DNA from: Bacteriovoracaceae bacterium
GTDB taxonomy: Bacteria > Bdellovibrionota > Bacteriovoracia > Bacteriovoracales > Bacteriovoracaceae
Direction of reading: 5' to 3'
NCBI GenBank assembly: GCA_049599895.1
Contig: JBMYPC010000016.1
Location: 1-32,841, forward strand
DNA: 32,841 nt
The first letter of the stretch is position 1. Each line of letters opens with the position of its first letter. A program made the position numbers. Positions 9,001-12,000 of this stretch are shown piece after piece.

Positions 9001-12000
9001 GTTCATTTGCCCTCTAGATGCATAAAGATGAATTTCAAGATGAGATTAATTAATAACCTTTAAGAATCTTTGCAGCTTCTTCACTAAGTCTTTGATCTTC
9101 AGTTTTTTCAGCTGGAGTTGCTGCCTTAGCTTCTCCCTCACCTTCTGCAGATTCCTCAGCTTTTGCCTCGCTAGCTTCTTTGGCTTCTTTTTCTTCAAGA
9201 ACCTTAGCTTTTTTCATTTCTTCTTCACGTTTTTTGATTTCTTCAATCTGCTTAGGATCTTGAGTAACGCTAACTTTAAATTCAGCTTCTACACCTTGAA
9301 AAAACTTCACTTTAATATCGAATGTTCCAAGAGCTTTGATTGGGTTAGCAATAACGAGATGTCTTTTCTCAACATCAAATCCAGCATCGTTAAGAAGTTT
9401 ACTAAGTTCAGTTGAAGTAACTGTTCCAAAAAGTTTTCCACCTGTAGAAACTCTTCTTACAATATCAACTTGGTGTCCATTAAGCTTAGAGCTAACATCT
9501 TTAGCATAAGATTTTTGCTCATCGATTTTCTTAGCAAGTTTCTTTTGTTGATTCTCAAGAACTTTTTTATTTGATTCATCTGCGAAGACCGCAAGGTTTC
9601 TTGGTAATAAATAATTTCTCCCGTATCCAGGCGAAACATTTACAATATCACCAACGTTTCCAAGGGATTGAACTCTCTCAGTAAGAATAACTTTCATTTC
9701 AGGTCCTCCAGCATATATCACACAGCGTCATTTGATTATTTTCTTTCCGTTTGATATCACATTCCTCATGGAAATCAAATGAGAAATCAAGTTTCTGGGC
9801 CAGTTTTTGGCCTTAAAAATTTTCTAAAATTAATCCATCCATCAAAAACCCCAAAAAGCACCACAATCTGCCACGCCATCGTAACAGTCAGCAGCACTAA
9901 AAAGGTTCTTAAGAAGCTTCGAATCCGTAGGTAGTCCAATAAAGTTATATAAAGTCCAAAGCCTTGGAAGAAATAAAATAATCCAATTCCATAAAGAAGG
10001 TTGCTTCCTAAAACAATAAGAGCGTCACCCCAAATATAGTCCCCAGCAACCCTTAGAGTGAGGGCAAGAATTAAAGGCCAAAGCATGACATCGGGAACTT
10101 TAAAATGAACTAACTCTTTTACGGTATAAGGATAGGCGTGACGGATCTTCCAAAGAAGAGAATTACGTAAAACTAAAAATAATGTTGCCCAGAAAGTAAA
10201 AAAGATCGTGATAAAAATCACAGAGGGCATCCAATTGATAATATCTTTTGCAAAGGCCTTTGGATCACTGAGAAAGTCCTCAAGAAGCCGTGCCTGTTCT
10301 CCGCCAGCAGAGATGAGTTCTTTGTTTTGAAGTTTCATTTGCTCAAAAAGTTCTAGGACCTTTGCTTCAACAAGGCCTGTAATGGAGCCACCTTCAAGGA
10401 TAACAACTCCTAGAAGAAGGACAAAGATCACGCCCACAACAGCAAGGCCAAATGTCAGAAGGCCCTTTACGGGATGCCATTTCCTTAAAATGACTTCAGC
10501 ATTGAGAACCCCAATAACAGCCGAAAAGAAGTAAGCAAAAGGCATATAGGAAAGCGCAAGCATGTACATTGATAAAGCGACAGAAAAAAGCATAAAGCCA
10601 AGAACGAGAACTAAGGATTTTTGTCTTCCATAAAGAAGAACCGCAATGGTCAGAGGGACACTGGCAAACAATGAAAGCGGGCCAAAAGCACAAAGTGCCA
10701 TCGCAGTAAGCCCGAGGAAAAGAAGTTTACCGTTTGTGAGATTTTCTTGATCAATCATTTTCAGTACATATCAAAAAAAAAGGCCAGAGACATGCCCTGG
10801 CCTAAAATATTTGCTTAGATTTTTCTTATAAGCTTTTTGCCGTGTAGTTTGAGATTGAACTTGCGATACCAATTGCTCTTGCTCTTTTAATCGCAGTTGT
10901 TGCAAATCTTTGGTGCTTACGGCTAACACCTGAAACTCTTGCAGCAGAGATTTTTCCAAACTCGTTAATAAGCCAGTTAAAAGTTTGAGGATCTTTCCAG
11001 TCCGCTCTTACTTTTTTAGCTGTAAACCAACAAGTTCTTCTCTTAGCAAACTTTCTTCTCGATTTTGCCATGTCTGAACCTTTCTCTTCCATTTCATCAA
11101 GAGCTGATCCAGAGTATTTTTTAGAATATGGACTTCTGTAAGTCTTAACAACGTCTTCAGCCTTAAGCTTAGGACATTTAATAATAAGGTGCTTAAGAAC
11201 AACTTCAGAAATTCCAAGACGTCTGTTGACTTCAAAGTTTGTATCAGCAGGAGCTGAGTAAACAAGAACGAAAAACCTTGCAGTTTCTTTTTTGTCAGCA
11301 GTAGCTTGGGCAAAACGAACTCGTCCCCAATCATCTTCGATAAGTACTTCACCACCTGTTTCAGTGATAGCACCTTTAATGTTCTCAATGGATTTTTTGA
11401 TGTTGTCTTCACCAGCATCATCAGCGTTAGCGATTGCTAATTCGTAGATCATAGATCCTCCTGGGTATTGCCTATTTTCCTATACTTGAAATAAGCGAGG
11501 TTTAAAATGTTTGTCGTTTTTAGCAAGACTGACTCAGCTTGTACATAACTCAAAGCACAAATCAAGTAAACTTTCTAGGTTAAAATAAAAAAGCCCCTGT
11601 TAACTTTAAGGGGGGCTTTGCAAAGGTCTTTATTATTAACTACTTAATACTGAATATTTCTTAGTCCACTACTTCCAAATGAACCAAAGGTCGCTTGGGA
11701 GATATCAGTACATTCCGCATTGAGCTCAGTGATACTGTTTCCTATCACTGTTCCCGGAACTGTTTCGTTATAAGTTAAGTGGCTATCGTTATCGATATGA
11801 CATTCACCTGAGTAAGATAAAGACTTGGAATTGGGTGTGGTCCAGGTCTTGGTCCAGGACCTATGCCTCCACCAGGAAGTTTTTGAAGCATATCTTTAAT
11901 CACAAGCTTCATTCTTTTTAATTCACTTTTCATTCACTTTTCTGCTCGAGGGCCAGTATTTCCGTACTCCATTCGATGAGAAATCTTTGAAATTTTTTCA

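Follow-up and report, generated by a model that had tools for sequence, protein, structure and literature searches.

A fused bS6-bS18 ribosomal protein gene with a candidate feedback leader in Bacteriovoracaceae

Can the two proteins of the bS6:bS18 heterodimer be made as one chain, and how would such a gene arise and be controlled? According to PMC4647458, the canonical heterodimer of the 30S platform is encoded in E. coli within rpsF-priB-rpsR-rplI. The question is raised by a locus in a Bacteriovoracaceae genome (G000; 97% complete, 266-contig assembly), which we examined in a window of 32,841 nucleotides, the whole stretch of DNA that was analyzed. The features of the locus, all on the minus strand, are as follows.

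10826..11452, minus: rpsF-rpsR fusion ORF (profile matches; AlphaFold2 mean pLDDT 88.5, pTM 0.85)
11177..11446, minus: bS6 domain, residues 3-92 (PF01250; fold matches to ribosomal bS6 chains)
11051..11176, minus: linker, residues 93-134 (conservation over 69 fused sequences; low pLDDT)
10865..11050, minus: bS18 domain, residues 135-196 (TIGR00165, 135-195; PF01084, 147-196)
11069..11071, minus: internal ATG (M128), 7 nt after AAAGG, poorly kept among relatives
11457..11500, minus: S6:S18-binding-type mRNA leader (pattern and covariation)
10771..10803, minus: terminator-like hairpin and T run just 3' of the fusion stop (simple scan; specific to G000)
9787..10758, minus: DUF2232 membrane protein gene, downstream neighbor (PF09991)
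9050..9721, minus: rplI (bL9), downstream neighbor (TIGR00158, Pfam)
7645..9006, minus: dnaB, downstream neighbor (PF00772, PF03796)

An earlier note on this DNA had claimed a single stop-free frame of 208 aa with bS6 at residues 3-92 and bS18 at residues 147-196. Translation and Pfam both agreed with this: the protein (P0001) has no internal stops, and its two domains matched Ribosomal_S6 (1.5e-14) and Ribosomal_S18 (3.9e-14). The bS6 part scored 54.4 bits against PF01250 (curated cut-off, 27), and its score against NCBIfam TIGR00166 over the same residues was 33.6 bits, below the cut-off of 42.9. The bS18 part scored 52.9 bits against PF01084 (cut-off, 21) and 49.1 bits against TIGR00165 (cut-off, 38.75). 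A profile search bore out the further claim that neither family matches elsewhere in the genome; each matched once, and both matches fell inside the same 217-codon open frame. Thus, G000 has one frame in place of separate rpsF and rpsR frames. The SSB matches of this genome sit on two other contigs, away from the fusion gene. A Logan contig, which is not independent of this DNA, covers the fusion stretch without letter differences; the runs X2 and X3 match only in parts of it.

The bS18 part retains the residues expected to read RNA. K189 and R192 were invariant across 109 aligned sequences. Alignment of the KRAR motif equates them with K60 and R63 of the E. coli protein, the residues that, according to PMC4647458, contact the conserved CC of 16S rRNA and of the leader. 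The fusion protein has only one cysteine in its bS18 part (C141) and so lacks the CxxC...CxxH arrangement of zinc-binding (C+) bS18. It had also been argued that the fusion would block C-terminal modification of bS6. This argument has little force because the RimK-family matches in G000 are only weak (best E value, 8e-7).

We searched 81 genomes of the family and inspected all 77 loci that matched; the 4 genomes that were missed are 56 to 85% complete. Both domains lay in one frame in 70 of the 77 loci (one of the 70 cut by a contig end), and rpsF and rpsR were separate in 6 (G002, G018, G027, G036, G039, and G077). The last locus, in G037 (L040, G037:C61:11570-12163, minus strand), is interrupted by an in-frame TAA where the linker ends, and no start codon precedes the bS18 core; the TAA may be an assembly error or may be read through. 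Its leader is intact and its cysteine motif is absent. The fusion had been called family-wide, which holds for the 70 loci but not for the 6 split ones or the one with the TAA. The proposed tethered bS6-bS18 is supported as the sole source of both proteins in G000, but it is neither universal in the family nor, as described below, unique to it. In a class-level sample of 121 genomes, which overlaps the family set, two-piece matches were found only in G018 and G039, and 7 further loci that we checked were single ORFs (one cut by a contig end).

Beyond the family, G100, the only genome of a second family in the order, also carries the fusion; its linker differs and is shorter. This genome (L078; 0.9 Mb, 96% complete, on a long branch) is a strongly reduced member of the predatory lineage. 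Among the matches listed for the phylum sample, none outside the family covered the query without a stop. We fetched 19 outgroup loci and found both genes in 14, always in separate frames, and one gene only in the other 5. In the nearest unfused families, rpsF stands directly before rpsR, with 81 to 163 nt separating the S6 stop and the S18 core. This spacing leaves no room for ssb, and thus the closure of the rpsF-rpsR gap predates the fusion. Of 334 database matches, the best 120 all carried both Pfam domains. The homologues come from sources named Bacteriovoracaceae and Halobacteriovorax, and Halobacteriovorax (P0040) carries the fusion. Some homologues in the lineage bear the JGI label "ribosomal protein S18/ribosomal protein S6"; others are named S18 or S6 alone, so that the other gene can look missing.

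Is the product of this frame a single chain? Across the 69 fused sequences that are complete, the region aligned with residues 93 to 140 measures 40 to 55 residues. The linker opens with a conserved YKxP (K103 in 97% and P108 in 100% of the 69), and a YKxP-like stretch forms the end of bS6 in the split genomes. After it comes a variable acidic tether that resembles the N-terminal extension of split bS18, followed by the basic N-terminal patch of bS18. An AlphaFold2 model from the 109-sequence alignment gave the whole-chain values listed above, and its pTM of 0.85 fits native bS6:bS18 packing, as far as a predicted model can. The bS6 part has the ferredoxin-like fold of ribosomal bS6 chains (8rd8_FG, Z 16.3, rmsd 1.4, 102 residues aligned; 8buu_f, rmsd 1.3 over 93 columns), and the fold alignment extends to about residue 110 to 115 along the bS6 C-terminal tails; these structure searches probed mainly residues 1 to 115, that is, the bS6 part rather than the packing of the domains. 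Among the best 60 of 73 PDB matches, no sequence had both domains.

We weighed two ways in which free bS18 might still be made. The first, to which we give little credence, is that the chain is cut after translation in the flexible acidic linker, yielding the ordinary two-chain bS6:bS18, so that the fusion fixes only a 1:1 ratio. In Firmicutes, the ribosomal protein bL27 is known to mature by proteolysis, and residues 121 to 140 are the part of which the model is least sure (mean pLDDT, 54 and 62), so they are probably exposed. However, the variable linker holds no conserved motif, with most columns from 117 to 129 less than 60% conserved, and several fusions outside the class have an estimated 0 to 9 linker residues, which leaves little there to cut.

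Slightly less probable still is that G000 makes some free bS18 beside the fusion from an internal start at M128 (or M121). The earlier note had pointed to this start as M127; the correct residue is 128 (window 11071-11069). It had also reported a Shine-Dalgarno (SD)-like AAAGG, which is present at 11083-11079, 7 nt before this in-frame ATG, but the SD match amounts to only 4 nt, AAGG, encoded by Lys-Gly codons. We scored SD strength against the usual consensus because an 11-mer anti-SD scan of G000 gave no match. A Met occurs at aligned residues 127 to 129 in 10 of the 69 fused sequences, whereas 33 of the 69 linkers have no ATG, GTG, or TTG at all, and 39 have no ATG. Furthermore, a linker start with a 5-nt SD was found in 1 of 69 fused loci, whereas the true start has one in 65 of 73. 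These counts argue that internal initiation is not how the family makes bS18, and the 33 linkers without a start codon make the single chain the likely product; a minor start at M128 in G000 is improbable. Finally, although single-base errors occur in assemblies of 266 contigs (the TAA of G037 is possibly one), an assembly or sequencing error that deleted the rpsF stop is refuted by the open frame in 70 of 77 loci at about 39 to 53% identity, by fused genes in genomes of 1 to 3 contigs, and by the two-domain structure of the best 120 of 334 matches.

We then asked what precedes the gene. Directly upstream of the start lie a CUC, a hairpin (11496-11470), a bulge with CCA (11464-11462), and the SD GGAGG (11461-11457), which can pair with the upstream CUC. 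In PMC3854524, the S6S18CBM is defined as a hairpin with a CCR bulge just upstream of a paired SD. The leader found here has this architecture (also that of the rpsF_leader), including correlated substitutions. The strict pattern was present in 54 of the 73 loci with enough upstream DNA, whereas 200 shuffles gave 1.9 on average and never more than 6. In a MAFFT alignment of 39 leaders, 87.6% of cells were paired and 83 cells had changed on both sides; because these leaders were mostly chosen for showing the pattern, this covariation count leans towards the structure. Covariation was 0.44 versus 0.17, and the higher value was reached by 0 of 500 shuffles and by no slid structure. In the short SD stem, changes are confined to one side, and a plain minimum-free-energy fold of the G000 leader formed the hairpin but not the 3- to 4-bp SD stem. 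No Rfam model came near its gathering score at the leader.

According to PMC4647458, translation from the E. coli leader is repressed only when both S6 and S18 are present. The feedback leader is apparently intact in the fused lineage, to judge from its pattern and covariation, and the fused chain would presumably repress its own translation through it. Among the four split genomes with the cysteine motif, three (G002, G027, and G036; loci L031, L033, and L034) have no CC[AG]GGAG before rpsF, and so they may have lost the leader or have another form of it.

Other elements around the gene were less consistent. The terminator-like hairpin after the stop was the only one found by a simple scan of the locus, with 0.9 expected from shuffles, and it was present in 1 of 77 family loci; it is not conserved. 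No sigma-70-like promoter was found in window 10700-11700. Upstream of the leader, at 11588-11625, a GC-rich hairpin between A and T runs resembles a two-way terminator, and Rfam alignments there were at chance level. Downstream, the Pfam domains of bL9 (9050-9721, minus) stop at residue 153, and the protein continues for about 70 more residues, with E, K, and A abundant in this C-terminal extension. On the other side, at 12479-13196 (plus strand), overlapping genes for a DUF6036 nucleotidyltransferase and a CopG-type protein form a toxin-antitoxin-like pair that adjoins RNase E/G.

The cysteines of bS18 bear on the history of the fusion. The CxxC...CxxH motif of bS18 binds zinc. We found that the second or third cysteine of this motif was kept in none of the 70 fused bS18 domains. 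The whole motif was kept in 4 of the 6 split family loci, being lost in the pair from genus g19 (G018 and G077), and, as judged by eye, in 12 of 17 outgroup bS18 proteins. Within the family, the fusion thus appears clearly tied to loss of the motif.

The trees agree less well. In trees of RpoB and of RpoB plus partial RpoC, the split genomes were scattered; G002 and G077 have no RpoB match, and the mixture tree was a quick version. Approximately unbiased (AU) tests did not reject a tree with all fused genomes in one group and no re-split (p = 0.167, 0.057, and 0.269). Holding the fused genomes and G018 together, a group that was named after the trees had been seen, raised the log-likelihood by 16.5 over the free quick tree when G100 was absent and lowered it by 8.0 when G100 was included. 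Leaving G018 out of the fused group cost 21.3 log-likelihood units. Because G100 has a long branch, its placement and the shared origin of its fusion are unsure. A tree of S6 plus S18 disagreed with the RpoB trees and placed the split genomes together, nested inside the fused ones. Most likely, the genes fused once, close to the root of the family, and were later re-split once, in g19; this is the best reading, and the trees give no proof of it. We infer the order of fusion, motif loss, and re-split from present-day sequences. As an aside, besides the true rpoB, genome G242 had two weak RpoB-family matches (G242:C4:29797-33003 and 108461-109606) in frames of 1163 and 1217 codons, possibly phage-type RNA polymerases.

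Is the fusion confined to this lineage? We ran a profile built from fused and separate domains over 1.84 billion representatives, obtained 27,297 matches, and examined the best 150. Both domains were present in 73 of these, with S6 before S18 in all 73, and 64 were near full length. Eight of the 64 fell in the class clade (support, 99), and the other 56 were spread over many groups outside it; their linkers (about 0 to 136 residues) are unrelated, and their identity to P0001 is 17 to 30%. By their sequences, the fusions outside the class are of independent origin. Some of them may be read-through artifacts; of 20 fusions that we looked up, 14 were in single-member clusters and 6 were in clusters of 2 to 9 members. 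Eight representatives (P0140, P0141, P0153, P0181, P0203, P0230, P0240, and P0244) are 149 to 168 residues long with almost no linker; some are possibly artifacts. Fusions of this kind indicate that the bS6 and bS18 termini can be joined almost directly.

Named cases point the same way. The Gemmatimonadota protein HIF39402.1 is fused, and a scan with a gammaproteobacterial-type alignment found 2 of 80 loci fused, both in Legionellales MAGs. Among Atlas clusters with both domains, the commonest taxa were Pseudomonadota, Absconditibacteriota, and Gemmatimonadota, with few members behind each. CxxC was kept in 1 of the 64 fused representatives versus 9 of 19 bS18-only representatives of the same list, a comparison between kin that are not independent and hence only a lead. 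In searches of open-access literature, titles and the starts of abstracts gave no report of an S6-S18 fusion. A look-up of terms found no passage on such a fusion in the searchable parts of PMC3353972, 10.1101/2021.01.31.429008, PMC11656739, PMC11789641, and PMC3854524. The fusion is nevertheless known from database labels, and since it recurs in several phyla, we regard it as a neat variant rather than a first.

Taken together, these data are best explained by a single-chain, tethered heterodimer with leader feedback that arose by a single fusion close to the root of the family, a reading to which we assign a probability of roughly 0.8. According to this model, bS6 and bS18 would fold on each other within one polypeptide as the usual heterodimer does, and the tie of 40 to 55 residues would derive from what were once the bS6 tail and the acidic N-terminal extension of bS18. 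The chain would join the 16S rRNA platform after uS15, as the ordinary dimer does, and we infer that it would be incorporated into the 30S subunit uncleaved. Fused protein in surplus would bind its own mRNA at the CCR-bulge leader and block translation. Once ssb/priB had gone from the rpsF-rpsR gap, the rpsF stop and the short spacer would have been lost and the two frames joined. This would most likely have happened a single time, on roughly the branch where the cysteine (zinc) motif disappeared. Separate genes would have persisted in three or four deep lineages, and one genus would have re-split them.

A bolder version is tentative, and we would sooner bet against it than on it: nearly the whole predatory class might have an uncleaved single-chain platform in which the tether replaces stabilization by the zinc site, lies as an acidic segment near the mRNA exit, and makes the protein a one-molecule autorepressor, the arrangement having evolved repeatedly and almost always with a cysteine-less bS18. 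The surprise in the fusion itself is limited because the partners are already an obligate dimer from neighboring genes and because it recurs in several phyla. Its value lies in a culturable natural test: Halobacteriovorax could show whether 30S assembly and rpsF feedback can skip the formation of the bS6:bS18 dimer. The split and probably re-split relatives would serve as controls for the dimer step.

Compared with the canonical bS6:bS18 pair, the fusion has the same domains in the same order, the same neighbors (rplI and dnaB), the same bS6 fold, and the same RNA-reading Lys and Arg of bS18. In contrast, it is one chain for two, with no ssb or priB in between. The leader shares with the S6S18CBM and rpsF_leader the hairpin, the CCR bulge before the SD, the SD in the closing stem, and a position directly upstream of the start. 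It differs in matching no Rfam model and in its putative effector, which here is a single chain, so that repression would not need two proteins to meet. The S6-S18 fusions of Legionellales MAGs, Gemmatimonadota, Absconditibacteriota, and unnamed metagenomic lineages have the same domain order as the fusion described here, whereas their linkers are unrelated to it and their identity to P0001 is low (17 to 30%).
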